Of a stretch of 42,521 bases of DNA, positions 5,892-32,176 are shown piece after piece (the stretch's first letter is position 1; the number at the start of each line of letters is the position of its first letter). The notes under the pieces are model-generated. The model was not told the origin of the DNA. It saw nothing but the letters and a program-made list of their open reading frames with translations, and did not search any database. The stretch is from Actinomycetes bacterium (GTDB lineage: Bacteria; Actinomycetota; Actinomycetes; Mycobacteriales; Jatrophihabitantaceae). Both the position numbers and the translations under genes were made by a program. The DNA lies in NCBI GenBank assembly GCA_009780925.1, contig WQZC01000001.1, forward strand, positions 1 to 42,521. Reading direction: 5' to 3'.

Positions 5892-6719
5892 CTAGTTGAA
5901 CTTGGGGCTGTCCAGGCAGCCGCCGCCGGTCTGACTCACCGAGCCCCCGCCGCCACCGCCTTGGGCCGGCGGGTTCTGCGGCGGAGCGGGCGCCGCTGGG
6001 GGCGGCGCCGTGGTGGTGGGCTTCTTGGTGGCGCGCTGCTTGGCCGCGTCGGCGTCCGCCTGCGCCTTCATCGCCTTCTCCGCCTGCAGCGTCGTCACGG
6101 TCGCGCCGCTGTCGGTGTAGGACAGATACGGCACCGAACTGGCCGCGTCCCACATCACTTGCGCGGTCGTCAGGCTGGACAAATCAAGGGAATAAAGCAC
6201 CGCCGTCGATGGGCGCCCGGCCAGAGCTATCCGAATGTCGTACTGTGGTTTCAGCGCGAAATTGTTGCCATTGGCCGCCGAAGTCGCCTTCGCGGGATCG
6301 ATCGCCGGATAGATGATCGTCGCGGTCACGTCTTGCGCCCAATTCACCTTGGCGGCCAACTCAGTCCATTTCGTGGTGCCGGTGCCGCGGATGCTGACCG
6401 CCTTGATCACCTTGCCGGTGGCATTGTCCAACTGGACCGTCTGGGACCCCGCGCTCGCCCGGCCGATAGTAAGCGCCGGCGCCGGCGCGGCCGAGCTCAC
6501 GTTCGCCGGGCTGCCCGCCATGGCCCCAGAGCTGGTTGATGCCGGGCTCTCCAAGGTGGTCGCGCCTGGGGTCGGCGCCGCGGTCGCGCCCGGGCTCGCG
6601 ACCGCGGTCGCGGTGGCCGCGCTGTGGCCGCCACCAGATCCGCACCCCGCCAACATGGCCAGCGCCAGCGCCGCGCCGGACACCACCAGCGGCCCCGCGA
6701 CCTTCTGGAACAACGTCAT
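5892..6719 (-). CDS. Lipoprotein of unknown function, last gene of the MBOAT operon
   Basis: The signal is MTLFQKVAGPLVVSGAALALAMLAGC|GSGGG, with lipobox LAGC. A GAGGAG RBS lies ~7 nt upstream of the ATG at 6719, while the track start at 6785 overlaps the upstream gene. It has a Pro/Ala/Gly-rich C-terminus. Confidence 0.7.
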   Translation of the reverse strand: MTLFQKVAGPLVVSGAALALAMLAGCGSGGGHSAATATAVASPGATAAPTPGATTLESPASTSSGAMAGSPANVSSAAPAPALTIGRASAGSQTVQLDNATGKVIKAVSIRGTGTTKWTELAAKVNWAQDVTATIIYPAIDPAKATSAANGNNFALKPQYDIRIALAGRPSTAVLYSLDLSSLTTAQVMWDAASSVPYLSYTDSGATVTTLQAEKAMKAQADADAAKQRATKKPTTTAPPPAAPAPPQNPPAQGGGGGGSVSQTGGGCLDSPKFN

Positions 6720-14389: not shown

Positions 14390-14571
14390 GCCCTGTATTG
14401 TCCGCTCGCTCGCTTCCCAGAGCGACCGCCAGAACGCGGCGCGCCCCAGGCGCGTGGCGCCCCACCGCTATCAGCCGCGTCGGCGCGCGCACGGCGCCCG
14501 CGCGGCAGTATGATATTGGCCGAGCGTGGCCGCTTGGGCGCAAATCTCTGGCCACTGAAAAGAGGGATCTC

Positions 14572-15771
14572 ATGGCGCCGCACCGACGTCTTCTCAGCCG
14601 TTTGACCGTGGTCGCTGTCTCCGCCTCGGTGTTGGCCGGGCTGTCATTGGCCGTGGGCGCGACCGCCGCGAGCGCCGCCACCATCGCCGACACCTTCCCG
14701 GACTCCGGGCTCGCGCAATGCGTCGCCGACGCCCTCAATGGCGGTCCCAGTGGCGACCCCACCGATCCCTACGTCCAAAGCGATATCGACCTAATAGCCG
14801 ACTTGTCTTGCCAGAGCTACGGGATCAGCGCGCTGGACGGCATCGACAACTTCACGGGCCTCCTCTCGCTGAATCTATCCGGCAATCAGATCAGCGACAT
14901 TTCCGTGCTCGGCCCGCTGACCTCGCTGCAAATCCTGGTCTTGTCGGGCAACCAGATCGACGACGCCACTGCGGTGGCCGGTCTCACCGGGCTCACCAAA
15001 CTGGATCTGAGCAACAACCAGCTCACCTACCTTCCCGACCTGAGCGCGCTGACCGCGCTGACCCAACTGGACCTGAGCAACAACCAGCTCACCGACGTTT
15101 CCCCGCTGAGCGGGCTCACCGCGCTCACGGAGGCCAACCTGAGCAACAACCAGATCCTGGACATCTCACCGTTGAACGCGTTGTTCAACCCGCCCTCCGG
15201 CACGACAAACCTGACCAATCTCTCCATATTGGGCCAGTGGGGCCAGCAGCTGGCGCTTCCAGCGATCTGCGCTGACACCCCGTGGCCGGACCCGGTGGTG
15301 GGCCTTGACGGAAAGGCGGTGCTGCCGACCGACCTGACCATCAACCCCGCGGACGCGATCGTCGACACCAGCGCGGGCACCATCAGCTACCCGACGGCCG
15401 GTGCCGATTATCAGCTCGCCTGGCGCGTGGCGCTACCCACCAACACTCCGACCAGCGGTCACGTGGTGCCTGACGGACAGTATTTCGCGGGCACGGTGAC
15501 CCAACCGGTCAGCCCAGCGGATGTGTGCCCGGCCAACACGCAGACGACCGCCCCGGCGAGCCCATCCAAGACCCCGACAAAGCCCACCAAATCGGTCACG
15601 CCGGTCAAGTCCACCAGCACCCAAACGTTGGGCCACATCGAGATCGCGACCGGCCTCGGGGCGAACGCGGCCCAAGGGCCAAACGGCGCGCTGCTCGCCC
15701 TCGGTTCGGTGCTGATGACGCTTGGGCTGGGCGCCGCTGGGATGATGGTCCGCCGTCGCGTCCGCGCCTGA
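14572..15771 (+). CDS. Internalin-like leucine-rich-repeat surface protein with a C-terminal membrane or cell-wall anchor signal
   Basis: RBS aagaggga is followed by the ATG at 14572, then the signal peptide MAPHRRLLSRLTVVAVSASVLAGLSLAVGATAASA. It has at least six ~22-aa LRRs (LSLNLSGNQISDISVLGPLTSLQILVLSGNQIDD...LDLSNNQLTDVSPLSGLTALT). The C-terminus is IEIATG, a hydrophobic helix, then RRRVRA. Confidence 0.8.
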   Translation: MAPHRRLLSRLTVVAVSASVLAGLSLAVGATAASAATIADTFPDSGLAQCVADALNGGPSGDPTDPYVQSDIDLIADLSCQSYGISALDGIDNFTGLLSLNLSGNQISDISVLGPLTSLQILVLSGNQIDDATAVAGLTGLTKLDLSNNQLTYLPDLSALTALTQLDLSNNQLTDVSPLSGLTALTEANLSNNQILDISPLNALFNPPSGTTNLTNLSILGQWGQQLALPAICADTPWPDPVVGLDGKAVLPTDLTINPADAIVDTSAGTISYPTAGADYQLAWRVALPTNTPTSGHVVPDGQYFAGTVTQPVSPADVCPANTQTTAPASPSKTPTKPTKSVTPVKSTSTQTLGHIEIATGLGANAAQGPNGALLALGSVLMTLGLGAAGMMVRRRVRA

Positions 15772-17368: not shown

Positions 17369-20335
17369 GTGACCGGCCGCCACCACACCGCCAGCACCAC
17401 GGAGCGCGCGCCGCGCGCCACCGCGCGCCGGGTCACCGGGTTCCTCCGCCGGCGCACCGCGATCGCCGCCGCGCTGGCCGTGATCGCCTCCGGGATCCTG
17501 GTCCCGTCCATGATGAGCCGCGCCTCCGCCGCCACCAAGACGCTGGTCGTCAACTCGACCGCCTGGGGCGGGCCGGACGCCAACCCCGGCAACGGGGTGT
17601 GCGCCACCTCCACCGGCGTCTGCACGCTGCGCGCGGCGATCGAGGAGTCGAACGCGCTCAAAGGCGGGGCCGGCGACATCCTGATCACGGTCGACCCGTC
17701 GATCGCGGCCGGCACGAAAATGTCGGGCACGGTCAACTACCCCCCGAACTACATGATCGGGGCTGAGTTGAACGGCGCGGACACCAACGGCGCCTACTTC
17801 AACGTCACCGCGCCGGTGACCATCGACCTCGACCACCGGCTGCAGGTTGACGGCTCGGCCAACAGCAGCTACATGGCAGCCGCCTTCTATCTCAACGGCC
17901 CGGACATCCAAGTGCTTAACGCCGATCAGGTGTTCTCCTCGGGCACGTCCTTCATCGTCGGCCCGCTCGCGAACCGGGTGCTGATCGACGGCGACGCCGG
18001 TGGTGGTTTCGGCCAGGTCGCCACCCCGAACAGCAATCCGCAGCGTTTCGTGGCGTTCCGCGACGGGGCCTCGAACGTGACAGTTCGGAACTACCAAGTC
18101 ACCGGCTTCTCCCCCAACGTAGCTCTCGGCGGGATCTTCATCTTCAACTCGCAATCCCCGTACACCGCGCTGAACAACATCGTCATCGACCGGGTCCAAG
18201 TGCTCAACGCGCCGCTGACCAACACGACATGCACCACTTCCGACGGTTCAGGGTGCCGGGCCCGGCTCGTGGGGTTCTGGAACGGCCTGGGCGCCGGCTG
18301 GGGCGTTGACACCTTCACCATCAACGGGCTCACCTTCAAGAACATGTTGGTGCGCAACCAGACCAACCAAACCGGACTGCAATTCGCCGCCGCCGGGGAC
18401 ACCCAAGGCATCAGCTCCGCCAGCATCACCAACCTGGTCATCGAAGACAACGTCTTCGTGAACAATCAGGGCAGTGGCACCGCCACCGGCAACGCGTTCA
18501 TCACTCTGCCCTACCACCAGCACCTGAAGGGGAAGAACTCGATCTCCCGAAACGTGTTCACCCGGGCCGCCACCGGCAGCGCGTTCGCGATCTACTACTA
18601 CGGCAACAACCTGATCACCGCCAACTCAACGACCCCATCGGGCCTGACCATCGCGGACAACCACTTCAACGGCTACACCGGCGGCGCCACCATCCGCACC
18701 GAGCGCACCGGCCTGGTCACGGTGACCGGCAACACCTTCGGCCCGGCCACCGGTTCGCAAGCCGCGCCCGGCGTCACCGAGGAGTACACCGACACCGCCT
18801 CCGTGCTCTACAACACCTATCACGGCGGGGTCAACTACAACTCCAACCAGTCCATCCGAACCTGGGCGCCGTCTGGCGACGCCGCGATCGCGAACGGCCA
18901 GCTCCCGGCCGGCGCTCTGATCATGGCCGACCCGCGAGGTGGCGCCCTGCCAACCGCCACCGCCATCGTCGACGTGACCAAGATCACCGCGACCGACAAC
19001 ACCTCGCAGGCGCCGGGCCAGCCGGTGACCCTGCAGGCCTACTGGACCGCCAGCCGCGGCGCCGAGATCTACCTCGGCAAGGTGAGCGGCGTCACCGGCT
19101 CCGCCGCCACCGTGGCGGTACCGCTGCCGGTGGGCGCGGTGGCTCTGCCCGACGGCACCACCGCGACCGCGGTGGACGCGACCACCGGCGCGGCGTCTGG
19201 ATACCTCCGGTTCCAGACCCACGTCGAGGGCCTCGGCCAACTGGAATCGTCGCAGTACTCCCGCCTGGCGCCGCTGTCCGGCACCTACACGCCGTTCCCG
19301 ACGCTGACCATCGACCAGGCGGCGGGCATGGGTGACCCAACGACCGGCCGCGACCTGCACTTCACCCTCACCTCGTCGATGCCGCTGGACCCGGCCACCG
19401 TGACCACCGACGCGATAACCCTGGCCGCGACGCCGACCGAGCAGACCATCGACGCCGCCCGGATCAACCCGCGCGTGGTGTCGATCAGCGAGGTCGCCGG
19501 CAGCGGAGGCACCGCCTTCAACATCGTCGTCCGGGTCGACGACTCGGCGACGGTCGCCGCCACGGTGGCCGCCGAGACCGTGCAGACCCCTGACGGGCTG
19601 ACCAACGAGGACCCGGCGAGCTTCACCGACAACGAGATCACCTTCCGCAACCCGTTGCTGGTCGATCCGGCCAAGTTCACCCTGGTCACCGGCGAGCCAC
19701 ACGGCAAGGACTTCACCATCGGCCTGGTCGCGGGCGCCCCGGCCCCAACCGACGACCTGACGTTCGCCGCCACCGTGAGCCAGCCGCAGGGCACTCCACT
19801 GGTGAGCCTGTCCACCACCAGCCCGGTGGTGCCGGCTGGCCAAAGCGCCAGCGCGCCGGTCACAGTCACCGCCGCGGGCGGCGACGTGGACCCGAACACC
19901 GCGGTGACGATCACGCTGACCGTGTCCTCACCGGACACCAACTACGACGGCCTCGTGGTGCCCACGGTGCGCCCGCACCTGTTCGCCACCGACCCAACCA
20001 TCCACATCACCAAGCACGCCTGGGTCGAGGTCGCCGACACCTCCTCGCCGGCGGGGATCGAGACCACCGGAACCCCCGCGCCGAACGGTACCCCGTTGCT
20101 CGACGGGCAGCTGGTGTGCTTCGTCTACACGGTCACCAACACCTCGGCCGACGACTGGGCCACCCCGCTGACCAACATCGTGGTCACCGACTCCGACACC
20201 CGCCTCGGCGCCGCCGGCGTCATCGGGACCATCGGGTCCCTGGCCCCCGGCGCGTCCGTCAAGCTCGCTGACTGCACCTCGTTGGCCCCGATCGACACCA
20301 CCGTCACGCGGGCCGGAAGCGGCGGCCAGTCATGA
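17369..20335 (+). CDS. Large secreted right-handed beta-helix protein with a CSLREA-like N-terminal motif and C-terminal Ig-like/DUF11-like domains
   Basis: A strong RBS aaaggagggg precedes the GTG. The signal peptide is RRRTAIAAALAVIASGILVPSMMSRASA. GVCTLRAAIEESNA resembles the CSLREAI motif that heads many parallel beta-helix proteins. The body is a long run of Asn/Gly/Thr-rich coils. The C-terminus (ITKHAWVEV...CFVYTVTNTS) is Ig-like. The stop overlaps the next ATG (ATGA). Confidence 0.8.
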   Translation: MTGRHHTASTTERAPRATARRVTGFLRRRTAIAAALAVIASGILVPSMMSRASAATKTLVVNSTAWGGPDANPGNGVCATSTGVCTLRAAIEESNALKGGAGDILITVDPSIAAGTKMSGTVNYPPNYMIGAELNGADTNGAYFNVTAPVTIDLDHRLQVDGSANSSYMAAAFYLNGPDIQVLNADQVFSSGTSFIVGPLANRVLIDGDAGGGFGQVATPNSNPQRFVAFRDGASNVTVRNYQVTGFSPNVALGGIFIFNSQSPYTALNNIVIDRVQVLNAPLTNTTCTTSDGSGCRARLVGFWNGLGAGWGVDTFTINGLTFKNMLVRNQTNQTGLQFAAAGDTQGISSASITNLVIEDNVFVNNQGSGTATGNAFITLPYHQHLKGKNSISRNVFTRAATGSAFAIYYYGNNLITANSTTPSGLTIADNHFNGYTGGATIRTERTGLVTVTGNTFGPATGSQAAPGVTEEYTDTASVLYNTYHGGVNYNSNQSIRTWAPSGDAAIANGQLPAGALIMADPRGGALPTATAIVDVTKITATDNTSQAPGQPVTLQAYWTASRGAEIYLGKVSGVTGSAATVAVPLPVGAVALPDGTTATAVDATTGAASGYLRFQTHVEGLGQLESSQYSRLAPLSGTYTPFPTLTIDQAAGMGDPTTGRDLHFTLTSSMPLDPATVTTDAITLAATPTEQTIDAARINPRVVSISEVAGSGGTAFNIVVRVDDSATVAATVAAETVQTPDGLTNEDPASFTDNEITFRNPLLVDPAKFTLVTGEPHGKDFTIGLVAGAPAPTDDLTFAATVSQPQGTPLVSLSTTSPVVPAGQSASAPVTVTAAGGDVDPNTAVTITLTVSSPDTNYDGLVVPTVRPHLFATDPTIHITKHAWVEVADTSSPAGIETTGTPAPNGTPLLDGQLVCFVYTVTNTSADDWATPLTNIVVTDSDTRLGAAGVIGTIGSLAPGASVKLADCTSLAPIDTTVTRAGSGGQS

Positions 20336-21015
20336 GCGCGACCCGCAACCGTCCCAGCAAGCACCAGGCGCCGACCCCCCGGCGACGCCGCGCGCTCGCC
20401 GCGCTGGCGCTGCCACTGGCCGTGGGCGCGATCGCGCTGTGCATGATCGGTGGGGTGACCCACGCGCGGTGGGCCAGCAACGACACGTTCTCCGGCGGTA
20501 CCGTCACCGGCGGCGACCTGCGCGTCAGCACCGGCGCGATGACCTGGCGACAGACCACCCCCGGCGTGACCAACCCCGCGTCCGGCACCCTGGGCGACGC
20601 CCCATCCGGCTTCGTCGCGATGCCCGGCGACGTGGTGGAGATCAGCGTGCCGGTGACCACCGTGCTGCACGGCCAGAACCTCACCGCCGAGCTGACCGCC
20701 GACTACCTGGCCCCCGCCTCGACGGGAGCCGACATCGCGGTGACCTACCGCGTGGAGAACGAAGCGGGGCAACAGATCGCGCCGGCGACCGGGACCGCGC
20801 CCGTCACCGACCCGCTCACCATATCCGGTCTGGCCGGCGACCCCGCAGGGGCCGACACGCACTGGACCGTGGTGCTGCGCGTGGCAGTGGTCAGCGACTA
20901 CCAGTGGATCACCCCGGACCAGCCGGCCCAAACCACCGACTTCAACGCCGGCAAAGTTCGGGTGACACTCACCCAGACCCGCTCATCAGGCACCGATCCG
21001 GGGGGCGGTGCCTGA
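20332..21015 (+). CDS. TasA/camelysin-like exported protein with an alternate-type (SipW-cognate-like) signal peptide, copy 1
   Basis: The N-terminus has the n-region RRRRALAAL, a TM segment, then GGVTHARWASNDTFSGGTVTGGDLRV. Compare B. subtilis TasA GGGTWAAFND...FASGTLDL (from memory). An internal MPGDVVEISVP block is also present. The gene is ATGA-coupled to the beta-helix gene. Confidence 0.75.
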   Translation: MSATRNRPSKHQAPTPRRRRALAALALPLAVGAIALCMIGGVTHARWASNDTFSGGTVTGGDLRVSTGAMTWRQTTPGVTNPASGTLGDAPSGFVAMPGDVVEISVPVTTVLHGQNLTAELTADYLAPASTGADIAVTYRVENEAGQQIAPATGTAPVTDPLTISGLAGDPAGADTHWTVVLRVAVVSDYQWITPDQPAQTTDFNAGKVRVTLTQTRSSGTDPGGGA

Positions 21016-21929
21016 TGAACCGGACCGGAAAGCTCGTCATCGGCGCAGTCGTGGCAGCAGTGACGATTGGCGTCGCCACCAGCGCCCTCGCGCTGTGGGC
21101 GGCCAACAGCGACGCCACCGCTGACCCGATACCCGTCGGCGGCATCTCCTTCGCCGCCACCGCCGGCCAAGGCGGCGCCGTCCCGCAGTACTCGGCGAAC
21201 GGCGGCCCGGTGACGCTGACCCTGCCGGGCAGTGAGATCGCCAAGGTCCTCGACGGCACCGACCCCAGCCCAGCGCCCGTGATCTGGCGGTTCACCGCTG
21301 AGGGACAAGCCGAAGGGATCACCGGCCTGAGCATGGACGTCACCGCGGGCAGCCAGATCGCCCCCAACGGAGCGATCACCGACATCGGATCGGGGATCGC
21401 CGCCCGCGGGACCGTGCTGGCGTTCTCCACCCTTCGGGTGTACGCGGCGTCGATCAACGGCGACTGCGCCACGCTGCCCGAGGTGCCCGAAACCGATCCC
21501 GGCAAGAACATCTACCTCTACGACAGCACTGATCACGTCCTGCAGACGGCGGGCGGGTTCGCCGGCCAGCCGGTGCGCCAGCAGTGGTGCGTGGCCATCA
21601 CGTTCAACGCCGACCCGCCGGGCGCGTACGCCAACGAGGTCCAGGCGCACGGAATCGCCGCGAACGGCGATCGGGTCAGCGCGGTCGACTCGTGGCGGTC
21701 GGTGGTGGCGTTTCCGCCATCGCTGGACGCCTCGGGCATCTACCGCAACCACGCCGACGTGGTCGGCGTGGCCATGGACGGGACCGCCTCGCGCGCCAGC
21801 GACCAGTTCGAAGCGCGCGTCTACCCGGATCCGAACGCGGAGCCCGACGTCACCATCGTGCTCGATCCGAAAGTCACCAACCTGAACCCAACCGTGTCAG
21901 CAGGTGACCGTTTCACCCCGACACCCTGA
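21015..21929 (+). CDS. Exported protein with a related alternate-type signal peptide, divergent member (copy 2)
   Basis: MNRTGKLVIGAVVAAVTIGVATSALALWAANSDATADPIPVGG shares the ALW(A/S)AN(S/D) junction with its neighbours. It is coupled by a TGATG overlap at 21013..21017. The track ORF 20439..21929 is an over-extension. Confidence 0.65.
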   Translation: MNRTGKLVIGAVVAAVTIGVATSALALWAANSDATADPIPVGGISFAATAGQGGAVPQYSANGGPVTLTLPGSEIAKVLDGTDPSPAPVIWRFTAEGQAEGITGLSMDVTAGSQIAPNGAITDIGSGIAARGTVLAFSTLRVYAASINGDCATLPEVPETDPGKNIYLYDSTDHVLQTAGGFAGQPVRQQWCVAITFNADPPGAYANEVQAHGIAANGDRVSAVDSWRSVVAFPPSLDASGIYRNHADVVGVAMDGTASRASDQFEARVYPDPNAEPDVTIVLDPKVTNLNPTVSAGDRFTPTP

Positions 21930-22021
21930 ACCCCCTCGCGACGACTGCGAGGCCACGCCCCCACCAGGGCACAACCGAAAACCGCGCCCCCACCGGGGCC
22001 GACTCAAGAAGGAACACGACA

Positions 22022-22813
22022 ATGAGCACCAATGACACCGCGGTCGTCGTTGTGACCGAGGAAAAGAAACGTCGCCGCGGCCTTATCTGGATCGCCGGCG
22101 CGACCGCAGCGCTGATGCTGGGCGGCGGGACGTTCGCCCTCTGGTCGGCGAACGACTCCTTCAACGGCGGTTCCATCACCGCTGGCGACCTGAACATCAC
22201 CAAGGTTGAGAACACCACCTACTGGGACGTCTCGACGGACCGGAAAGACGCCGATCAGACCGTGCCGGGCACCAACGGGAAAACCGGCCACGCCATCGAC
22301 AGCATCGCCACCTGGCGGATCGTGCCCGGTGACAAGGTCGCCGCGGTCTTCTCCACCAGCGTCACCCTCGAGGGCGACAACATGGTCGGCAAACTGTCGG
22401 TCAAAGGCTTTGACGCCATGACCGACGGCAACGCGTCACTGACCTGGAGCTACCAGATCTTCCACGAGGCGGAGGCCGTGGCGGCCGAGACCGCGCTGCC
22501 GGCCGACGGCAACCTGCTCTACCTGTCCGCCCCGGGCACCGGTCAGGACAGCGGCCTAGAGGACGCCGACGGCACCACGGTCCGCGCGATGACCGACAAG
22601 ACGGAGAACCTCACCATCGTCATCTACGGCACCTTCGCCGCCACCGCCGGCAACGACGGCAAGACCGACAAGGACGCCAACGGCGTGTACAGCCACCAGA
22701 GCACGGACGCCACCGGCACCCGCCAAGACGCCACCAAGGCCGACATCCTCGCCAAGCTGCTGGTCCAGCTCGACCAGGTTCGCGACACCGGCGCGCAGTT
22801 CGCTGTCAACTAA
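22022..22813 (+). CDS. TasA/camelysin-like exported protein with an alternate-type signal peptide, copy 3 (candidate major subunit)
   Basis: RBS gaagga is upstream. KKRRRGLIWIAGATAALMLGGGTFALWSANDSFNGGSITAGDLNI closely parallels the TasA signal-mature junction. WRIVPGDKVAAVFSTSVTLEGDNMVGKL parallels copy 1. Confidence 0.8.
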   Translation: MSTNDTAVVVVTEEKKRRRGLIWIAGATAALMLGGGTFALWSANDSFNGGSITAGDLNITKVENTTYWDVSTDRKDADQTVPGTNGKTGHAIDSIATWRIVPGDKVAAVFSTSVTLEGDNMVGKLSVKGFDAMTDGNASLTWSYQIFHEAEAVAAETALPADGNLLYLSAPGTGQDSGLEDADGTTVRAMTDKTENLTIVIYGTFAATAGNDGKTDKDANGVYSHQSTDATGTRQDATKADILAKLLVQLDQVRDTGAQFAVN

Positions 22814-22825
22814 CCCCAAAACCAA

Positions 22826-22845
22826 GGGCCCCAAGCACGGGGCCC
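22826..22845 (+). terminator. Short GC hairpin directly after the copy-3 stop
   Basis: gggcccc aagcac ggggccc: a 7-bp perfect stem with a 6-nt loop, 13 nt after the TAA at 22811..22813. Confidence 0.4.
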
Positions 22846-22851
22846 GAAATA

Positions 22852-23080
22852 CCCCAGCGGCCCCGAAACGGCCACCCCATCTGCCCAAGTAAGGGCCGCT
22901 GGCCACAACAAAGGAACCCCAACCACGGGGAACCGGAAAACCCCAGCGGCCCCGAAACGGCCACCCCATCTGCCCAAGTAAGGGCCGCTGGCCACAACAA
23001 AGGAACCCCAACCACGGGGGTCCGGAAAACCCCAGCGGCCCCGAAACGGCCACCCCATCTGCCCAAGTAAGGGCCGCTGG
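22852..23080 (+). repeat. Tandem repeat, 89-bp unit x 2.6 copies, each with a 10-bp-stem hairpin. It is preceded by a degenerate partial unit at ~22821..22851.
   Basis: Units start at 22852, 22941 and 23030. Copies 1 and 2 differ at 2 of 89 positions (ggggaaccgg vs gggggtccgg). Copy 3 is identical for its first 51 nt. Each unit contains ccagcggccc...31 nt...gggccgctgg (perfect inverted repeat) and a second small cccc-aaccac-gggg hairpin. Confidence 0.95.
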
Positions 23081-23083
23081 CAC

Positions 23084-23120
23084 CGGCACGACACCCAACC
23101 GCGCCCCTGGGGTCGTGCCG
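23084..23120 (+). other. Hairpin closing the repeat region, upstream of the signal peptidase gene
   Basis: cggcacgac ...19 nt... gtcgtgccg: a 9-bp perfect stem. Confidence 0.4.
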
Positions 23121-23234
23121 AGGTGGCCGGTGGCGGATGAACTGGTGCTCTCCGCCACCGGCCCATTACCCCCAAAGACTTCGCACCAGCGCACAAACCA
23201 TGCGCCGCCCGACCCATGCCAGAGAGGAGTCACC

Positions 23235-24047
23235 GTGAAGCACCGCGCCGCCGCCAAGCCCCGCGACCCCAAGCCGCCGCGTCACGCGGCCGCCCTACCC
23301 ACGGTGACCCCCCGGAGCGTCGCGACCGACCGGGCCGACACCGACTGGGCCGACATCGCAGCACTGCCCGCCAGCGCCCGCCGCCGGTTCGACTCCCCGT
23401 GGCGCGTCGCCGGGGCCGCCCTGATGATCGCGCTGACCATCTCGTTGGTGGCGGTCGCCTCGGCGATCTTCGTTGTGCCACGCGTCGTCGGTGGCACCAG
23501 CCTGACCGTGCTGACCGGATCCATGCAGCCGACCCTCAAGCCTGGCGACGTCGTCGTCGTGCGCGGCGTCGCGCCCAAGGACGTGTGCCAGGACGTGAAG
23601 GTCGGGCAGATCATCACCTTCCTTCCCAAGCCAGACGACCCCACCCTGATCACCCACCGGGTCGTGTCCAAGACAATCGGCGCTTTCGACGACGGCACCT
23701 CGTGCCGGCTCACCACCCGCGGCGACGCAAACTCCGCCGACGACGAGCCGATCTCCCCGATCCAGGTGCGCGGCGCGTTCATGTATGGCGTGCCAAAGCT
23801 CGGCTGGGCCCGCCAGTGGATCAGTGACCATCGGCCAGTGGTCGCGGCCATCGGCGCCGGGCTCTTCGTCGCCTACCTGTTGTGGATGCGCGCCCGCCCC
23901 AAGACGACGCGAGTCGTCAAATACCAGCGGCAACCCGTCAGCGGCCGGCCGGAGGACGCCGCCGACGACGCCGACAGCACCGCGACCGCGGCCGGCGCGC
24001 CCGGCATCGGCACTCCCATCCGGGCCTCAATCGCGGCCCGCAGCTGA
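23235..24047 (+). CDS. Signal peptidase I, SipW / archaeal-ER type (S26B-like)
   Basis: VLTGSMQPTLKPGDVVVVRG...GQIITFLP...LITHRVV...TTRGDANSADDEP parallels B. subtilis SipW SGSMEP...GDVITF...THRIV...KGDNN. It has an N-terminal TM and a C-terminal TM (VVAAIGAGLFVAYLLW). I prefer the GTG at 23235 with RBS gagaggag, but the GTG at 23115 is possible. Confidence 0.85.
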   Translation: MKHRAAAKPRDPKPPRHAAALPTVTPRSVATDRADTDWADIAALPASARRRFDSPWRVAGAALMIALTISLVAVASAIFVVPRVVGGTSLTVLTGSMQPTLKPGDVVVVRGVAPKDVCQDVKVGQIITFLPKPDDPTLITHRVVSKTIGAFDDGTSCRLTTRGDANSADDEPISPIQVRGAFMYGVPKLGWARQWISDHRPVVAAIGAGLFVAYLLWMRARPKTTRVVKYQRQPVSGRPEDAADDADSTATAAGAPGIGTPIRASIAARS

Positions 24048-24937
24048 TGCGCGCCCGTTCGCCGCGCCGCGACGGACCGGACTGGCGGGCGCGGACAAAC
24101 CGCGGGCACGGCCTTTCCCAGCGTGGGCGCGCCATCTCCTGGCTGATGGCCACGGTGCTGCTTTGCTGCGTGGCTCTGATCGCGACCGGTGGCGGAGTGG
24201 GCGCGATCACCGGCGCTGGCGGTCAATCCCCCGGCCGAAACACCAACCGAAACACCGACAAAGTCATAACCGCCCAATGGGATGGCCCGACCACCCACTT
24301 GAACTGGCTGGGTGACCGTTACACCACCGCCGAGGCGACCTTTGTGGGTGATCGGGTGGCCATCCCCGGCGACCGCGTGCAACGAACCTTGAACGTGTGC
24401 AATGACGGGCCGTCTGGAGCGGTGATGGTGGTGTCGCTGCTAGTCGCGGAAAACCCGGCCGCGTTCGAGCAGGACCCGGAACTGGCATCGGATGTCGATC
24501 TGTTCTGGAGCGTCGGCGACGCCGTCGGCTCGGACCGTTTCGAAACGCTGCTGGCCGCCGCCGACGGAACCGAGGTGGCGCACACGCACGCGCCCCGCGG
24601 GGTGATCATCCCAGTCACCGTCGGATTCACCATGGACCGCGCCGTCACCACCGGTCAGGACCGCGCCGCCGCGATGCCCGAGCTGAGCTTCAAGGTCGAA
24701 GTGCGCATGCATGGCGACGCCAGCCTGCCGAGCGGCATGGACTCACCGCACGACTCCGACGCTCCGTCCGCCGCGCGACCGGACACCAATGGTTGGCGGA
24801 TCCCCGGGCTCTCCGCAACCGGGGCGGCGGTCCTTGGCGCCGCCGCGGCCGCCGTCGGCCTGCTGGGCCTCGGCGCGCTGGCATTGTTGCTGGTAACGCG
24901 CCGCCGCCGGCGCGCGCGTCACGCGTCATCCGAATAG
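24047..24937 (+). CDS. Exported TasA-like-core protein with a C-terminal LPXTG-like (LSATG) cell-wall sorting signal
   Basis: It is coupled to the peptidase gene by a TGATG overlap. It has an N-terminal TM (WLMATVLLCCVALIATGG). IPGDRVQRTLNVCNDGPSGAVMVVSL resembles the TasA LKPGDKLTKDFQFENNGSLAIK block. The C-terminus is IPGLSATG, a 24-aa hydrophobic stretch, then RRRRRAR. Confidence 0.7.
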   Translation: MRARSPRRDGPDWRARTNRGHGLSQRGRAISWLMATVLLCCVALIATGGGVGAITGAGGQSPGRNTNRNTDKVITAQWDGPTTHLNWLGDRYTTAEATFVGDRVAIPGDRVQRTLNVCNDGPSGAVMVVSLLVAENPAAFEQDPELASDVDLFWSVGDAVGSDRFETLLAAADGTEVAHTHAPRGVIIPVTVGFTMDRAVTTGQDRAAAMPELSFKVEVRMHGDASLPSGMDSPHDSDAPSAARPDTNGWRIPGLSATGAAVLGAAAAAVGLLGLGALALLLVTRRRRRARHASSE

Positions 24938-25050: not shown

Positions 25051-27594
25051 ATGGACGAAGAGATGGGCGGCATCGTCGAGGAAGTGACCGGGTATCTGGG
25101 CGACTCGGTCAGCGTCCACCTAGTCGGGTTGCGGCAATCAGGGCGCAGCCGGGTCGCCCGCCTGGTGGCCGACCGGCTCCGCGAACGCGGCATGGCGGTC
25201 GTGGTGGTCAGCGGAGTGGCCGCGTTGCGCGATCACCCGCTAGCCGTGCTCGCCTTGGCCGGGGTCAACATCCCCTCGGGCGCGGCGGCGTCATCCATCT
25301 CGGGCGCGGTTTCGGCGCTGTCCAAGCTGCTCACCCCGAACCGGTCGGTGCTGGTCATCGACGACGCCGACGATCTTGACTCGGTCAGTTCCGGAGCGGT
25401 CGCCGCCGCCCACGCCCGCCAGCCGTTCCCGGTGCTATCGGTGACCCGGATGGCCGGTCGCGGCCAGCCGACCAGCCGCGCGCTGACCGCGGGGTTCCAA
25501 CCCGGGGTGCGCGTCACCCTCGACCCATTGACCTTCGACCAGTTGCACCGCGTGGTCCACCGAATGCTCCCCGGACCGGTCGATTCGGCGACCGTCGCCC
25601 GCATCGCAACGCTCTCCGGCGGCCTGCCGGGACTGGTGCGCGCCATCGTGGACACCGGGCGACGGGCCGAGACCATCGTCGAGGAGCACACCGTCTGGCG
25701 GGCCAGGGGCGACCTGTGGAACGGCCGGCTCGCCCAAGCGGTGGAACCGCTGCTGGTGGATCTGACCGATGACGAGTTGGACGCGCTGACCCGCCTGGCG
25801 CTCACCGGCACCGTGACCGCGCCCGAAGCGCAGCACGTCGTCGCCGACCAGCTGTTCGCCCGCCTGGACCAGCTCGGGCTGCTCCAAGTCGCGCAGACCC
25901 CCACCGGCCCGCTGGTGGGAGTCTTCCCGCCACTGGTCGCCGAATACCTGCGCCGCACCGGGGCGGCGATGTCCCGACTGGACGCCATGGGCGGCGTCGC
26001 GGCAGAGGCCAGCGGGTCATGGGGCGCGCTCACCCCGAGGCTCACCCTCACCAGTTCGCGCGCGGCGATCCTGAACATGCGGATCGTCGAGCACTGGCGG
26101 GTCGAAGTGGCCAATGCGCGCGCGAGTTGGCGCGCGGCGCCCAGCGCCGCCACGGCGGTGCCGCTGCTCAGCGCGCTCAACGCCGCGTCGGCCGAGGCGA
26201 GCGAGTTCGCCGCCGTGCTGGACGGCACCGTGCTGGACGATAATGACCCGCGCGCGAGCGTCCGCCTGGTCATCTGGCGCGCCGCGCTACAGGCGTTGGT
26301 CGCCGACGACATTGACGGCGCCTGCGAGCTGTTGGCCAAGCAACAGGTCCGATCGCCGGCGTTCGCGAGCCAACTGCGCGCCACCCAGGTTGGGTTGCGC
26401 CTGCTCGTCGGACCGATGCCGGACCTCGAGCTGCTGGCCCCCGCCGGTCCGGAGGAGGATCCGCTCGGCGCCGAGGCGCTGGCGACCATGCGAGTCGCCG
26501 TTCTGAACGCGCAAGGGCGGACCATCGACGCGCTGGCGGCGCTGCCCAGCTACGCCCCAACGTATCCCTACTACGTCGAGAACAACCGGATCAGCGTCGG
26601 ACTGGCGCGGGTGCTGCACGGTGATTTCGACGACGGGGTGGAATGGGCGCTGCGCGCGATGGCTGACGCCGAAGCCAAACTCAGTCTCGGGGAGATCCAC
26701 GCGCACGCCTATGTGGCCGCGCTCGGCCTGACCTTCGCCGGGCGCCTCGACGATCTGGACGCGTTGCTCGGGCCAGTGCTGACCCTGCGCGGCACCCGGT
26801 TGCTGTCCGAGCACTATCAAATCGGTCTGCTCGGCCTGGCGGCGCTGGCCGCGAGCTGGCGCGGCCGGCTGGACCAGGGCTGGTCGCTGTCGGTGCAGGC
26901 GGAGACCACCGGGCGCCGGGCCGGACCGTTCCCGGGGATGCTGCACGGGGTCACCCCAACGGTCTCCGATCCCGACCGCGACTGGGAGCAGATCGGCGCC
27001 CGGCTGTGGCGCGCCGTCGACGAGCGTCTCGCCAAGGGCTACGTCACCGCCGGCGTCGCGGTCGCGCTCACCGCGGTGGAGATCGCGCCGGACAGCGAGC
27101 GCGCCGCCGCGGTGGTCGAGTGCGCCCGCCGCGCGCAGAGCCCGTTCCTCGCCGCGTTGGGCGAGTACATCGCGGCGACGGCGGCCGGCGACCCGGACGC
27201 GCTCAAGGAATGCTTCGCCGACCTGTGGAGCCGCGGCGCCCGGCTGCACGCGATCAAAGCCGCGGTGACCTGCGCGCTGGTGCTGCGCGCGAGCGGCGAC
27301 ATCCCCGCCTCGGTGCGGCAAGCCGAACAGGCCTGGGGCCGGTTGGCCGAGCTGGACCACGGCTGCCACGGGCTGTTCTTCCGCTTGGGCGATGCTGTCG
27401 GGCTCAGCACCCGCGAACGCGAGATCGCGGTGATGCTCGGCGACGGCATGACCGTGCCGGCGATCGCCTCGGTGCTCAGCCTGTCCGCGCGAACGGTGGA
27501 GAACTACCTGTTCAGCGGATGCCGGAAACTGGGCGTGGAGGGACGCGACGACCTGGTGCGCGCGGTGGCCACCTGGGCCGCGCTGGGCGCCTGA
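25051..27594 (+). CDS. Large LuxR-family (LAL/MalT-like) transcriptional regulator
   Basis: The C-terminal HTH is LSTREREIAVMLGDGMTVPAIASVLSLSARTVENYLFSGCRKLGV. The N-terminal P-loop-like motif VHLVGLRQSGRS is degenerate (K to R). The middle region is long and helical. I chose the ATG at 25051 because the upstream in-frame stretch (24946..25050) is AT-rich and uses tta/att/cta codons. A TANNNT hexamer (tacggt, 25039..25044) sits 6 nt upstream, which would fit a leaderless transcript. Confidence 0.8.
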   Translation: MDEEMGGIVEEVTGYLGDSVSVHLVGLRQSGRSRVARLVADRLRERGMAVVVVSGVAALRDHPLAVLALAGVNIPSGAAASSISGAVSALSKLLTPNRSVLVIDDADDLDSVSSGAVAAAHARQPFPVLSVTRMAGRGQPTSRALTAGFQPGVRVTLDPLTFDQLHRVVHRMLPGPVDSATVARIATLSGGLPGLVRAIVDTGRRAETIVEEHTVWRARGDLWNGRLAQAVEPLLVDLTDDELDALTRLALTGTVTAPEAQHVVADQLFARLDQLGLLQVAQTPTGPLVGVFPPLVAEYLRRTGAAMSRLDAMGGVAAEASGSWGALTPRLTLTSSRAAILNMRIVEHWRVEVANARASWRAAPSAATAVPLLSALNAASAEASEFAAVLDGTVLDDNDPRASVRLVIWRAALQALVADDIDGACELLAKQQVRSPAFASQLRATQVGLRLLVGPMPDLELLAPAGPEEDPLGAEALATMRVAVLNAQGRTIDALAALPSYAPTYPYYVENNRISVGLARVLHGDFDDGVEWALRAMADAEAKLSLGEIHAHAYVAALGLTFAGRLDDLDALLGPVLTLRGTRLLSEHYQIGLLGLAALAASWRGRLDQGWSLSVQAETTGRRAGPFPGMLHGVTPTVSDPDRDWEQIGARLWRAVDERLAKGYVTAGVAVALTAVEIAPDSERAAAVVECARRAQSPFLAALGEYIAATAAGDPDALKECFADLWSRGARLHAIKAAVTCALVLRASGDIPASVRQAEQAWGRLAELDHGCHGLFFRLGDAVGLSTREREIAVMLGDGMTVPAIASVLSLSARTVENYLFSGCRKLGVEGRDDLVRAVATWAALGA

Positions 27595-28841: not shown

Positions 28842-29645
28842 TCAGTCCCCCGCGCGCGGCGTGGGCGCGACCTCGGCCCAGTCGGGCTGTTTGGCGACGC
28901 GGCCGTCGCCGGAGGATCGGCCGGTTAGCCGCCGGCCGATCCACGGGCCGACGTAGCCGCGGTAATAGGCCCAGCCCCGGGTCGCCGGCGCGGGCTGGTT
29001 CGAGCCGCGCCCGCTCGGCGCGCGTTCGGCTGGCCAGTCCCACCATCCGGCTGGCACCGGCAGGCCCATCCGGTCCAGCAGCCGGGCGGCGACCCGGTGA
29101 TGGCCGCAGGCGTTCAGATGCAGCCGGTCCGTGGACCAGAACCGCGCGCCAGCCAGCGTCGGATCATCCCAGTTGATGGCCAACAGCACGTTCTGTTGGC
29201 CGCCGAGCCGGCGCTCGACCGCGCGGCAGAGCCGGTCGCCGCGCCGACGGAACACCGCCCCCAGCGGCAGCTGTTTCGAGGGGTTGGCACCGGTGGGCAC
29301 GATCAGTCGCACCCCCCGCGCGGCGCACCGGGCGCCGACCTCGGCGTAGCGACCGGCGACCCGCTCCACGTCCACCCGTGGTCGAAGCATGTCGTTGCCG
29401 CCGCCGTTGAACGACAGGTGCGTGGGCTGGAGGGCGAGCGCGGTGTCCAACTGCTCGTCGATGATCGGGTCGAGCAGCCGGCCGCGCACCGCCAGGTTCG
29501 CGTACTCGATCGGCTCCCCGCGCGCGTCCGCCCAGCCTTGGGCGAGCAGGTCCGCCCAGCCGCGCTGCGCGCCGGACGGCAGGTCGTCGCCGACCCCCTC
29601 AGTGAACGAATCCCCGATCGCCACGTATCGAACCGAGCGTGTCAC
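28842..29645 (-). CDS. SGNH/GDSL hydrolase family protein
   Basis: Block I is VAIGDSFTEGVGD, followed by FNGGGNDMLRP (block II/III) and a C-terminal DRLHLN-type block. It has a GTG start. Confidence 0.8.
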   Translation of the reverse strand: MTRSVRYVAIGDSFTEGVGDDLPSGAQRGWADLLAQGWADARGEPIEYANLAVRGRLLDPIIDEQLDTALALQPTHLSFNGGGNDMLRPRVDVERVAGRYAEVGARCAARGVRLIVPTGANPSKQLPLGAVFRRRGDRLCRAVERRLGGQQNVLLAINWDDPTLAGARFWSTDRLHLNACGHHRVAARLLDRMGLPVPAGWWDWPAERAPSGRGSNQPAPATRGWAYYRGYVGPWIGRRLTGRSSGDGRVAKQPDWAEVAPTPRAGD

Positions 29646-29795
29646 CCGCTATCCCCCGTCCGCTCAACGGTCTCCCGATGCCACAGCTCCATTGTGCCGG
29701 TTCGCCGCGACAACCGCCGCGCCACGGCTCCAGCGCCCGCGTCCGGGTGCCTGCGGCACGGAGGGCAGCGCGAATCGGGCGATAGCATTCCGCGA

Positions 29796-30596
29796 ATGAC
29801 CATCAACGTGAGCGTCGCGGGCGCGACGGGCTGGACCGGCCGCGCCATCGCTGAGGCCGTGCTGGCCGCCGACGACCTCAACCTGTGCAGCGCGGTCAGC
29901 CGCTCATCCGCCGGACGGGACCTCGGCGCCGCCTGGGGCGCGGAGCCACTCGGCGTCCCGGTGTTCGGTCGCGTCGCGGAGGCGCTCACCGGGGTCGACG
30001 TCCTGGTCGACTACACCTCGGATGAGGTGGTGCTCAGCAACGCGCTGGCGGCGATCGCGCGAAACGTGTGCGTCGTGATCGGGACGTCTGGACTCACCGC
30101 CGCCGACTTCGCCGTCATCGAACAGGCGGCGGTCGAAGCCGGAGTGGGCGTCGTCGCGGCGGGAAACTTCTCGCTCACCGCGGCGATGGCCCAGGCGGCG
30201 GCGCTGCTCGTGGCGCGGCACCTGCCGCACCGGGAAATAATCGACTACGCCGCAGCGGGCAAGCCGGACGCGCCCAGCGGCACCTCCCGGGAACTGGCCG
30301 AACGCCTGGCCGCGGTCCGGCTCAACCAGGTGGAACTGCCGCCGGAACAGACTCGCGGACGCGCCGAGGCGCGCGGCACAACGGTCGCCGGGACTCAGAT
30401 CCATTCGGTTCGGCTGCCCAGCTTCGTGGTGTCCACCGAGGTCCTGTTCGCGCTCCCGGATGAGCGGCTGTCCATCCGGCACGACGCGGGCGGCAGCACC
30501 GCCCCGTACGTCGCCGGGACATTGCTGGCCGTTCGGGCGGTGACCGGGCGCCCCGGCCTCATTCGCGGACTGGACACCTTGCTGCTCGCGGGCTGA
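29796..30596 (+). CDS. Dihydrodipicolinate reductase (DapB)-family protein lacking the catalytic HH motif
   Basis: The Rossmann N-terminus is VSVAGATGWTGRAI, followed by VIGTSGL and AAGNFSL. DYAAAGKPDAPSGTS occupies the position where DapB has E(A/L)HHxxKxDAPSGTA. Confidence 0.7.
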   Translation: MTINVSVAGATGWTGRAIAEAVLAADDLNLCSAVSRSSAGRDLGAAWGAEPLGVPVFGRVAEALTGVDVLVDYTSDEVVLSNALAAIARNVCVVIGTSGLTAADFAVIEQAAVEAGVGVVAAGNFSLTAAMAQAAALLVARHLPHREIIDYAAAGKPDAPSGTSRELAERLAAVRLNQVELPPEQTRGRAEARGTTVAGTQIHSVRLPSFVVSTEVLFALPDERLSIRHDAGGSTAPYVAGTLLAVRAVTGRPGLIRGLDTLLLAG

Positions 30597-30614: not shown

Positions 30615-30679
30615 GCGCGAGCGGGTCGGTGGGCGCGAGCGGGTCGGTGGGCGCGAGCGGGTCGGTGGGCGCGAGCGGG
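30615..30679. repeat. 18-bp tandem repeat (gcgcgagcgggtcggtgg) x ~3.6 between convergent genes
   Basis: Read directly. There are three perfect units (30615, 30633, 30651) plus an 11-nt partial unit. Confidence 0.9.
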
Positions 30680-30707: not shown

Positions 30708-31463
30708 TCATCCGCGCGGGATTGGTTCGCCCGCTTCGCCGCGCGCCCGGTACCGGTCCAGGCTGACGAAATCGGCGACATCGCGGCGCACCCGTTCCCG
30801 GGGCCGCTGCGGTTGCTCGGCGAGCGCCGGGTAGCCGAGGCGGACGCTCAGCGCGACCGCGAGGCGCTCGGGAATCCCGAGGGTCTTCTTGACCTCGCTG
30901 GCCAGCGGCTCGTTCGCCAGCGAGCTGATGATGTGGAATCCGACGCCCCGAGCGGTGGCCATCAGCCACATGTTCTCCAGCACGCAGCCAAGGCTCATGG
31001 CGCCCAGGAAATCTCCCTCCGAGGCCGGCGCCCGGCGCGCCGGGTCGTACAGGACGACCGCCAGCGCCGGGCCGCGGCGCACCTGCTCACCCAGTTTCGC
31101 GGGTGGCTCGGCCGGCAGCCGACCCGCCTGCGCCTCGGTCGTCAGCCACTCCGGCGGGAACTGCGCCGCCAGCAGGCCGGTCTTCTTCGCCCGCAGCTCC
31201 GCGTCGGAGAAGGACAGCTGACGATAGTTCTCGCGCACGAAGACCGGAGACACCGACGACTCAAGCTCGCTCAACTCGCGCAGCACCGCTTTGTCTTGGA
31301 CCACGACGAGCTCGAAGTTCTGCATATTGTGCGCGGTGGGCGACCAGGCCGCCGCCTGAAGGATCTCATCCAACACCGCCGGGTCGATCGCCCGATTCTC
31401 ATTGAACGGTCCCCGGGCCGAGGCGCGCTCCCTGATGAGCGCCAAGACCTGCTGCGGATTCAT
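30708..31463 (-). CDS. Nitroreductase family protein
   Basis: MNPQQVLALIRERASARGPF...ILQAAAWSPTAHNMQNFELVVV is the typical nitroreductase N-terminal block. The ATG overlaps the SDR stop (ATGA at 31460..31463). Confidence 0.8.
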   Translation of the reverse strand: MNPQQVLALIRERASARGPFNENRAIDPAVLDEILQAAAWSPTAHNMQNFELVVVQDKAVLRELSELESSVSPVFVRENYRQLSFSDAELRAKKTGLLAAQFPPEWLTTEAQAGRLPAEPPAKLGEQVRRGPALAVVLYDPARRAPASEGDFLGAMSLGCVLENMWLMATARGVGFHIISSLANEPLASEVKKTLGIPERLAVALSVRLGYPALAEQPQRPRERVRRDVADFVSLDRYRARGEAGEPIPRG

Positions 31464-32176
31464 TTGTGCTCCGCCCATTTCATCGGCACCCTTATCTCGT
31501 CGACGTCTTGTTCCATCTGACCCAGCGCGGCGGCCACGAATTCATCCGCCGTCAGCATGTTCGGCGCGGTCACGAAGTTCCGTTTCCGGCGGCTGGCCAA
31601 GTTGAGCTCGGACTCCACCGCCGGCGGGATGATCTCGACAACCCGGACGCCGGCCGGCGCGAGCTGGATCCGTTGCGCGATGGCGAACGCGTGCACCGCC
31701 GCCTTGGTCGCGCAGTAGATCGGGCAGCGGGTCGCGCGCTCCACCATGAACGCCAGGCCGGAGGAGACATGCGCGATGGTGGCGTTGTCCTTGCCTCGCA
31801 ACAGGGGCAAGAACATCGCCGACAGCCAGATCGGCGCCTCCAGGTTGACCGCGATCTCCGAGTCGCCGTCGTCAAGCTCGGCCACGCCCTTGGTCAGGTC
31901 GATGTCGCGCTGCGCCCCGGCATTATTGATCAAGATGTTGACGTTCGGGAACCGCTCGCGGGTGAACTCGATCAGCCGCTCGCGTCCCACCGGGCTAGTC
32001 ACATCGCATTCCATGGTGTGCGCGCCGGGCAGCCGCTCGGCCGCCTGCGCCAACCGGTCGGCCCGCCGCCCACAAATCACCACGACGTTGTCGCGGGCCA
32101 AGAAATACTCGGCCATCGCGTAGCCGATCCCGGTCGCCCCACCGGTGATCACCACGGTGTTCCCGCTCATGCGCAT
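31460..32176 (-). CDS. Short-chain dehydrogenase/reductase (SDR)
   Basis: It has TGGATGIGYA (TGxxxGxG), NNAG, and a YCATK catalytic Tyr-x-x-x-Lys. The start is set at MRMSGNTVVITGG. Confidence 0.85.
   Translation of the reverse strand: MRMSGNTVVITGGATGIGYAMAEYFLARDNVVVICGRRADRLAQAAERLPGAHTMECDVTSPVGRERLIEFTRERFPNVNILINNAGAQRDIDLTKGVAELDDGDSEIAVNLEAPIWLSAMFLPLLRGKDNATIAHVSSGLAFMVERATRCPIYCATKAAVHAFAIAQRIQLAPAGVRVVEIIPPAVESELNLASRRKRNFVTAPNMLTADEFVAAALGQMEQDVDEIRVPMKWAEHK

Follow-up and report, generated by a model that had tools for sequence, protein, structure and literature searches.

How did a tandem array of hairpin-bearing repeats come to separate two neighbouring genes of an actinobacterial cluster, and what could it do there? 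The question is raised by a stretch of 42,521 nucleotides (nt) from contig WQZC01000001.1 of an Actinomycetes bacterium of the Jatrophihabitantaceae (assembly GCA_009780925.1), hereafter called the window. In the window, the gene of a candidate subunit protein carrying a SipW-dependent signal peptide is followed by the gene of a SipW/archaeal-type signal peptidase, and the spacer between them contains three 89-nt units. A preliminary description of the locus had likened these stacked stem-loops to the attenuators or mRNA stabilisers of pilus operons, and had mentioned as alternatives a variable-number tandem repeat (VNTR) similar to MIRUs, the interspersed repetitive units of mycobacteria, or a binding array for a LuxR-family regulator. 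The array is specific to its lineage and has no coding potential, and relatives have a single-hairpin architecture in the same place. On balance, we lean towards regarding it as a young, lineage-private minisatellite of the intergenic spacer, whose stem-loops come on top of a conserved hairpin barrier between the cistrons, with an effect that would be at most quantitative.

Organization of the repeat array

In the region of the spacer, Tandem Repeats Finder places one strong array between 22829 and 23081, with a period of 89, 2.9 copies, 95% of matches and a score of 453. Read in register, the array consists of three full units starting at 22814, the base that follows the TAA stop codon of the subunit gene. 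Each unit opens with 40 nt of C/A-rich spacer, in which there is a small C4/G4 hairpin, and closes with a 49-nt hairpin that has a 10-bp stem. This 49-nt core, CCAGCGGCCC-N29-GGGCCGCTGG, has exactly three occurrences, at positions 22854, 22943 and 23032, and none in 100 shuffled sequences. All three copies are identical over about 52 nt, from the ACCCC ahead of each hairpin to the hairpin end. The spacers have not remained identical: the second and the third differ at 2 of 40 positions, two adjacent bases being AA in one and GT in the other (22932-3 and 23021-2), whereas the first has diverged at about 10 positions and by one indel. Head-to-tail copies of such high identity are those of a tandem repeat of the minisatellite type.

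The in-register reading revises part of the preliminary description, where units were counted from 22852. In that frame, direct comparison of copies 1 and 2 does give 87 matches out of 89, the two differing bases being adjacent, and the repetition does stop after 51 nt of the third copy, at 23080. However, the degenerate partial unit placed ahead of copy 1 becomes the diverged spacer of a full first unit, and no truncated copy is left. The perfect 10-bp inverted repeat attributed to every unit was retrieved both by the repeat finder and by the core count, but the repeat finder places 29 nt between its arms instead of 31. The elements of the spacer, all read on the plus strand, are the following.

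22814-22902, 22903-22991, 22992-23080, plus strand: array, three in-register 89-nt units (repeat finder, core count, alignment)
22826..22845, plus strand: mini-hairpin 1, GGGCCCC-aagcac-GGGGCCC, 13 nt after the stop codon (fold; position matches the hairpin of relatives)
22854..22902, plus strand: large hairpin copy 1, perfect 10-bp stem, 29-nt loop with an inner 3-bp helix (-24.2 kcal/mol, z = -3.5)
22917..22930, plus strand: mini-hairpin 2, CCCC-aaccac-GGGG (motif scan, fold)
22943..22991, plus strand: large hairpin copy 2, identical to copy 1 (core search)
23006..23020, plus strand: mini-hairpin 3, CCCC-aaccac-GGGGG (motif scan, fold, alignment)
23032..23080, plus strand: large hairpin copy 3, identical to copy 1 (core search)
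23084..23120, plus strand: unique hairpin past the array, CGGCACGACACC ... GGGGTCGTGCCG (inverted repeat I7, 12-nt arms, 92% complementary; fold)
23125..23163, plus strand: ancestral intercistronic hairpin, GGCCGGTGGCGGA-N13-TCCGCCACCGGCC (inverted repeat I3, 13 of 13 pairs; -32.4 kcal/mol, z = -5.2)

The RNA fold predicted for positions 22805-23235 (431 nt) reaches -188.8 kcal/mol (z = -4.9 versus shuffles), and the stem-loops are themselves predicted to be stable (z = -3.1 to -4.9 versus shuffles). The AA-to-GT change beside mini-hairpin 3 gives the extended stem one more pair. A stable predicted RNA structure is found directly after the cistron presumed to be favoured, inside the cluster and between the subunit and the peptidase genes.

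As for coding potential, the preliminary description had noted the lack of ATG on the plus strand; GTG and TTG are also absent from 22814-23080, and a TAA in the loop closes each of the three frames once. The minus-strand open reading frames over the array, already considered as echoes of the repeat, have no Pfam match. No Rfam family matches the window at gathering score, and a permissive Rfam scan of 21500-23700 returns only a chance match (E = 0.42) inside the subunit coding region. A scan for tRNA and transfer-messenger RNA genes found none. The segments between the hairpins are copies of one another and not unique spacers, in agreement with the earlier dismissal of an array of clustered regularly interspaced short palindromic repeats (CRISPR).

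The signals that might start or stop transcription in the spacer were also considered. No sigma-70-like site is found between the subunit and the peptidase genes. A TANNNT motif is lacking on either strand of this spacer, which is weak evidence since about 0.3 occurrences are expected by chance. A canonical intrinsic terminator on the plus strand can be rejected for the repeated hairpins: their loops are of 29 nt, they are followed by CCACAACAAAGG and not by a U tract, and a pattern scan finds no plus-strand site in the array. A composition favourable to Rho loading was not retained either, the C/G ratio of 1.6-1.8 over the array being similar in the neighbouring coding sequence and hence not discriminating.

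The intercistronic spacer in related loci

The 263-residue subunit protein has 129 homologues, mostly in Microbacterium, Cellulomonas and Leucobacter, with identities not exceeding 61%. The loci of the closest homologues were compared with the window, together with 55 loci from species-representative genomes and with loci from metagenomes. Judging from isolate names, several of the related bins look like termite-gut metagenome-assembled genomes. The analysis took the source of the window to be an uncultured member of the Micrococcales. With few exceptions, the related loci have the two genes side by side, that of the peptidase coming second. Their spacer has a median length of about 108 nt (57-205), as against 421 nt in the window and 332 nt in the nearly identical locus L001 described below. 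A strong hairpin of at least 8 pairs is present in the spacer of 44 of 47 related loci; the strongest one has, in the median, 15 pairs, a loop of 4-5 nt, a stability of -32 kcal/mol and a start 13 nt past the stop codon. A U tail is mostly lacking: in 29 of these 44 loci, the 10 nt that follow contain at most one T. Among the Microbacterium loci, one group has 57-58 nt of spacer, which amount to the hairpin, then AAGGAG and the start codon. A promoter would not fit into spacers this short, so that transcription of the peptidase gene probably runs through the family hairpin, in the same transcript as the subunit gene. By analogy, the family-wide single hairpin after the subunit gene fits the layout of an attenuator or of a 3′ stabiliser of the mRNA.

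This single hairpin has a counterpart in the window. The hairpin at 23125-23163 can be aligned with the one that follows the orthologous gene in two relatives, L004 and L005, with 13 pairs kept and one compensatory change of G-C to A-U. It is this single ancestral hairpin that is conserved. In L004, a small hairpin located 13 nt past the stop codon, a large hairpin and the ribosome-binding site succeed one another within 108 nt. Both ends of this layout are kept in the window, as the mini-hairpin at 22826 and the large hairpin at 23125, with the repeats between them. In L005, TTGTTCTTCC comes after the hairpin and the regulator gene stands next, so that the hairpin looks there like a plain terminator. 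The closest relative of the subunit protein, P0002 (61% identity), is encoded on a contig of 1.2 kb with no more than about 58 nt past the gene, and is uninformative on the spacer.

The array itself is a different matter. Tandem Repeats Finder detects no tandem array in the subunit-peptidase spacer of any other related locus, and no sequence similar to the 89-nt unit is found in any of them. Since no relative has the array or a unit-like sequence, the array is to be considered as a lineage-specific expansion and not as a conserved part of the system. The attenuator or stabiliser arrangement put forward in the preliminary description is supported for the gene family, by the hairpin of 44 of the 47 loci, but not for the 89-nt array. 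The absence of the repeat at orthologous loci had been named beforehand as an argument against a regulatory role, and it excludes that the array is a conserved regulatory part.

Other peculiarities were seen in the related loci. The spacers of two Leucobacter loci, L026 (4307-4513) and L041 (4307-4494), are of about 190-205 nt and carry three to five different strong hairpins in a row. As these spacers became long independently, stacks of hairpins after the subunit gene have arisen more than once, without repeats. A tandem repeat of 92 nt (2.1 copies, 90% matches) occurs at 6244-6435 of the Cellulomonas sp. NPDC089187 locus (L018), about 2 kb downstream of the subunit gene, and is unrelated in sequence to the 89-nt unit of the window. 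In Leucobacter chromiireducens LYC-2 (L029, 3434-3908), a perfect direct duplication of 238 bp includes the start of the subunit gene; it is either real or an assembly artefact.

Possible origin and effect of the array

Considering these data, a scenario for the array may be envisaged. An 89-nt module would have been tandemly amplified in the spacer, between the subunit stop codon and the pre-existing family-wide hairpin, presumably by replication slippage or unequal recombination. The host spacer would tolerate, and probably use, RNA structure. The whole spacer is most likely transcribed within one subunit-peptidase mRNA, because relatives leave no room for a promoter before the peptidase gene. 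In such an mRNA, the array would add three large and three small stem-loops ahead of two further hairpins, which would make eight stem-loops in about 350 nt. More structured RNA after the subunit cistron could mean better protection against 3′-to-5′ decay or more pausing and termination before the peptidase gene. Either effect would raise the ratio of the subunit to the products of the processing genes. The number of copies, three or two, may moreover differ between cells or populations.

Several points weigh against this scenario. Being absent from all relatives, it cannot be a required part of the system and may be selectively neutral. Its large hairpins, with their 10-bp stem, 29-nt loop and lack of U tract, resemble neither intrinsic terminators nor the canonical hairpin of the family. 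Covariation of the stem, a check suggested in the preliminary description, can lend no support from within the array, the copies being identical. The copy search in the source genome covers the 42-kb contig stretch, and copies elsewhere in the genome are possible. Finally, the difference in copy number could be an artefact, as multi-k assemblers can carry collapsed repeats forward.

Copy number and rival explanations

The 89-nt unit is present in three independent assemblies, the window, L001 (ENA ERZ27257292) and L002 (Logan, assembled with k=31). L001 is identical to the window over 6.7 kb, minus exactly one 89-nt unit, that with the AA junction, so that it has two large hairpins versus three in the window. 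L002 ends after about 31 nt of shared sequence, a break of the kind that a repeat is expected to cause by branching the assembly graph. When the peptidase protein was used to look for further alleles, the L001 contig was the only one retrieved. The three copies of the window and the two of L001 reflect either true copy-number variation or assembly collapse. That the unit is real while this difference, and perhaps the count of three itself, is a product of short-read assembly and corresponds to no biological variation is unlikely but has to be taken seriously. The two contigs differ by one exact unit only within identical 6.7-kb flanks, both apparently come from short-read metagenome assemblies, as judged from their k141 contig names, and the third assembly breaks inside the repeat. 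On the other hand, the distances between the AA and GT junctions and the unique flanks are below 141 nt; no 141-mer across the array would then occur twice, and each allele would need reads of its own at the final k. Even so, contigs inherited from a smaller k could still bring in a collapsed repeat. It is distinctly less probable that the unit is a dispersed short palindromic element, of the type of repetitive extragenic palindromes (REP) and bacterial interspersed mosaic elements (BIMEs) or of miniature mobile elements, with an incidental effect on the operon. The perfect 10-bp terminal inverted repeats of the 49-nt core and the resemblance of the array to an insertion relative to the orthologous spacers would suit such an element, and cores that are 100% identical while the first spacer has diverged are consistent with repeated insertion or homogenisation; clusters of REP in intercistronic spacers are the classical malE-malF case. 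Yet a search for the core arms allowing at most two mismatches per arm, together with short-word blastn, found no further copy in the 42-kb window or in 460 kb of related loci. A core 20-mer spanning the loop-stem junction has no match in 185,579 species-representative genomes and none in viral contigs; its one match in the metagenomes of the Joint Genome Institute (JGI) lies inside an AT-rich, phage-like coding region and was judged to be due to chance. Blastn of the array against plasmids and phages gave no match either. In addition, all copies are direct and obey a fixed 89-nt period, as products of slippage do and unlike the alternating orientation of BIMEs.

Two further possibilities concern the DNA and the opposite strand. 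The array could work through its minus strand, as stacked hairpin and U-tract terminators that would stop antisense transcription from entering the subunit gene or would end an antisense RNA. A terminator-pattern scan of 21500-24000 gives 6 sites where 2.1 +/- 1.5 are expected, 5 of them on the minus strand inside the array; the hairpin is more stable on that strand (-29.8 versus -24.2 kcal/mol), and with only 5% T in the plus strand the minus-strand RNA is U-rich. We nevertheless hold this to be most unlikely: every gene between 17369 and 27594 is encoded on the plus strand, and no minus-strand gene therefore ends at the array; the leader of the subunit gene, which is not repeated, has the same T-poor, A/C-rich bias (3% T), so that the bias belongs to the spacers around this gene and not to the array; and G-U pairs usually give a G/T-rich strand such extra stability. 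As for the binding array proposed in the preliminary description, the three palindromes 89 bp apart would be DNA sites through which a regulator, for instance the downstream LuxR-family protein, controls the peptidase gene. Three identical 10-bp inverted repeats with a regular spacing and a LuxR-family gene in the same cluster make the idea understandable. However, related loci with the same regulator gene beside the cluster have neither the array nor a similar sequence, half-sites 29 bp apart are unusual for helix-turn-helix dimers, and the regulator gene, which had been called adjacent, lies at 25063-27594, about 2 kb downstream of the array. The lack of a -10-like TANNNT motif in the spacer points, weakly, in the same direction. 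This explanation is extremely unlikely.

A bolder version of the preferred minisatellite reading may be imagined, in which the array would serve as a dial, set by a rapidly mutating copy number, in the RNA that lies between the gene of a secreted matrix or fibre subunit and that of its dedicated signal peptidase. If so, gain and loss of the 89-nt module would set the amount of transcript that reaches the peptidase and accessory genes, and sibling cells would differ in their surface or matrix polymer, a form of phase variation through intercistronic RNA structure. We consider this very unlikely. Should the difference in copy number be real, the locus would at least provide a strain marker and a natural series of two versus three modules in which to follow the effect of stem-loops on read-through. 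Taken alone, the array is of little consequence: intergenic minisatellites with hairpins are a familiar kind of element, as are stem-loops between cistrons, and the array is private to one uncultured lineage. The more general finding, also of a familiar kind, is the hairpin architecture around the gene of the SipW-dependent protein.

Comparison with known systems

Intercistronic stem-loops that protect mRNAs, or mRNA decay terminators, are exemplified by the REP hairpins of malE-malF in E. coli, by the hairpin of the puf operon and by pilus operons of the pap and fim type. To our knowledge, no example of such a regulation has been studied in the SipW-dependent protein family of actinobacteria. 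Protective 3′ structures are found between the cistrons of malE-malF and of other operons (PMC5927463). The present locus resembles them in that a stable predicted structure stands right after the cistron expected to be the most abundant and before accessory genes of the same operon, and the single hairpin that the family has after its subunit gene is a good match for this arrangement. The array departs from them in not being conserved at orthologous loci and in its large hairpins with 29-nt loops.

MIRUs are dispersed over many loci and contain a short open reading frame coupled to the downstream start codon (PMC12548453). The array shares with the mycobacterial MIRU VNTRs tandem units in the range of 40-100 bp, a location in a spacer inside an actinobacterial operon and a possible polymorphism of copy number between near-identical genomes. 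In contrast to MIRUs, it has no start codon and its three plus-strand frames are closed, it abuts the upstream stop codon and not the downstream start, and it has no second locus in the window, in related loci or in the public collections scanned. The likeness to a MIRU-type VNTR drawn in the preliminary description consequently holds for the size of the units, for their place inside an operon and for the possible variation in copy number, but fails for the coupled open reading frame.

The array is like REP and BIME elements in that its GC-rich palindromes lie together in a spacer at a gene's 3′ end. It differs from them by a longer palindrome with a large loop, by copies that are all direct with a fixed period and by the lack of dispersal in the 500 kb searched. 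Structured 3′ ends without a U tract have been reported in Streptomyces, a high-GC actinobacterium (PMC8269248). The hairpin at 23125-23163 and those of the relatives, with their long GC stems, loops of 3-6 nt and mostly no U tail, are similar to these I-shaped terminators or hairpin-capped Rho-dependent 3′ ends, whereas the repeated 49-nt hairpins of the array differ from them in shape. Overall, the array would be closest in its working to intercistronic protective or attenuating stem-loops, and appears closest in its looks to a VNTR of the MIRU type.

The gene cluster around the array

The genes and signals that surround the array, all on the plus strand, are the following.

17369..21929, plus strand: three upstream cluster genes with overlapping junctions (988 residues; 227 residues, with a sub-threshold TIGR04089 match; 304 residues)
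21953..21999, plus strand: 5′ untranslated region, in which two small C-run/G-run hairpins closely precede the subunit gene's ribosome-binding site (direct repeat D6; CCCCCACCGGGG at 21987)
22022..22813, plus strand: subunit candidate, 263 residues, SipW-dependent (alternate-type) signal peptide (TIGR04089, 64.5 bits, cut-off 60; TIGR04088, 25.9, cut-off 19)
23222..23229, plus strand: ribosome-binding site of the peptidase gene, GAGAGGAG (read directly; the L001 gene call starts at the equivalent GTG)
23235..24047, plus strand: SipW/archaeal-type signal peptidase I, 270 residues, GTG start (TIGR02228, 70.8 bits, cut-off 51.85; Pfam Peptidase_S26)
24047..24937, plus strand: 296-residue protein, start overlapping the peptidase stop codon (L001 gene call, translation)
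25063..27594, plus strand: large LuxR-family regulator with AAA_16 and GerE domains (domain matches)

In NCBIfam, TIGR04089 stands for the alternate-type signal peptide domain and TIGR04088 for the SipW-dependent signal peptide. We know of no solved structure for the TIGR04089 family. The AlphaFold model of the 263-residue protein (mean predicted local distance difference test score, pLDDT, of 75.8) is rich in beta structure, and 113 residues have a pLDDT above 90. A TasA-like fold was considered and is not claimed: a profile search of PDB sequences was empty and Foldseek gave no significant match with the model, the TasA fibre ranking 34th with E = 0.17.

Within the cluster, the subunit cistron alone has spacers on its two sides, of 92 nt before it and of 421 nt after it, whereas the other junctions between 17369 and 24937 overlap by 1-4 nt. 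The subunit cistron appears to be treated separately. Its 5′ side also carries RNA structure. A GCCCC-N4-GGGGC hairpin located right before the ribosome-binding site of the subunit gene recurs in L004, L005, L065, L027 and L055 (window counterpart in 21930-22021), and this 5′ mini-hairpin may act as a stabiliser of the subunit cistron. C4/G4 mini-hairpins had previously been listed at 21957, 21986 and 22826. Those at 22826 and 21987 are found, but only a GCCC/GGGC pairing of 3-4 bp exists at 21957. C4-N(4-7)-G4 motifs are not enriched in the window as a whole (5 versus 9.7 expected), and 4 of the 5 cluster around the subunit gene. More generally, clusters of Micrococcales encoding a SipW-type peptidase set apart the cistron of the SipW-dependent protein, with a small hairpin on its 5′ side and a strong hairpin without U tail after its stop codon, while their other genes overlap. 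Such an architecture would predict that the SipW-dependent protein is the abundant product and that its level is set after transcription.

The 296-residue protein encoded after the peptidase has no family match; its C-terminal end, hydrophobic and basic, looks like a membrane anchor. In most relatives (L009-L055), the gene that comes next after that of the peptidase contains, at about 5050-5150 of the locus, a repeat with a period of 21 nt, for example CTGCGCGAGCGCGAGCTCGAG. This periodicity suggests heptads and a coiled coil. For the 296-residue protein of the window, no such repeat is called by Tandem Repeats Finder.

Two other tandem repeats were observed in the window, away from the cluster. 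The open reading frame 14398-15771 encodes a leucine-rich-repeat protein, and the 66-nt repeat at 14983-15153 (2.6 copies) is its coding repeat. At 30615-30679, a perfect 18-nt tandem repeat of 3.6 copies (GCGCGAGCGGGTCGGTGG) occupies the short gap between the convergent open reading frames 29097-30596 (plus strand) and 30708-31478 (minus strand).

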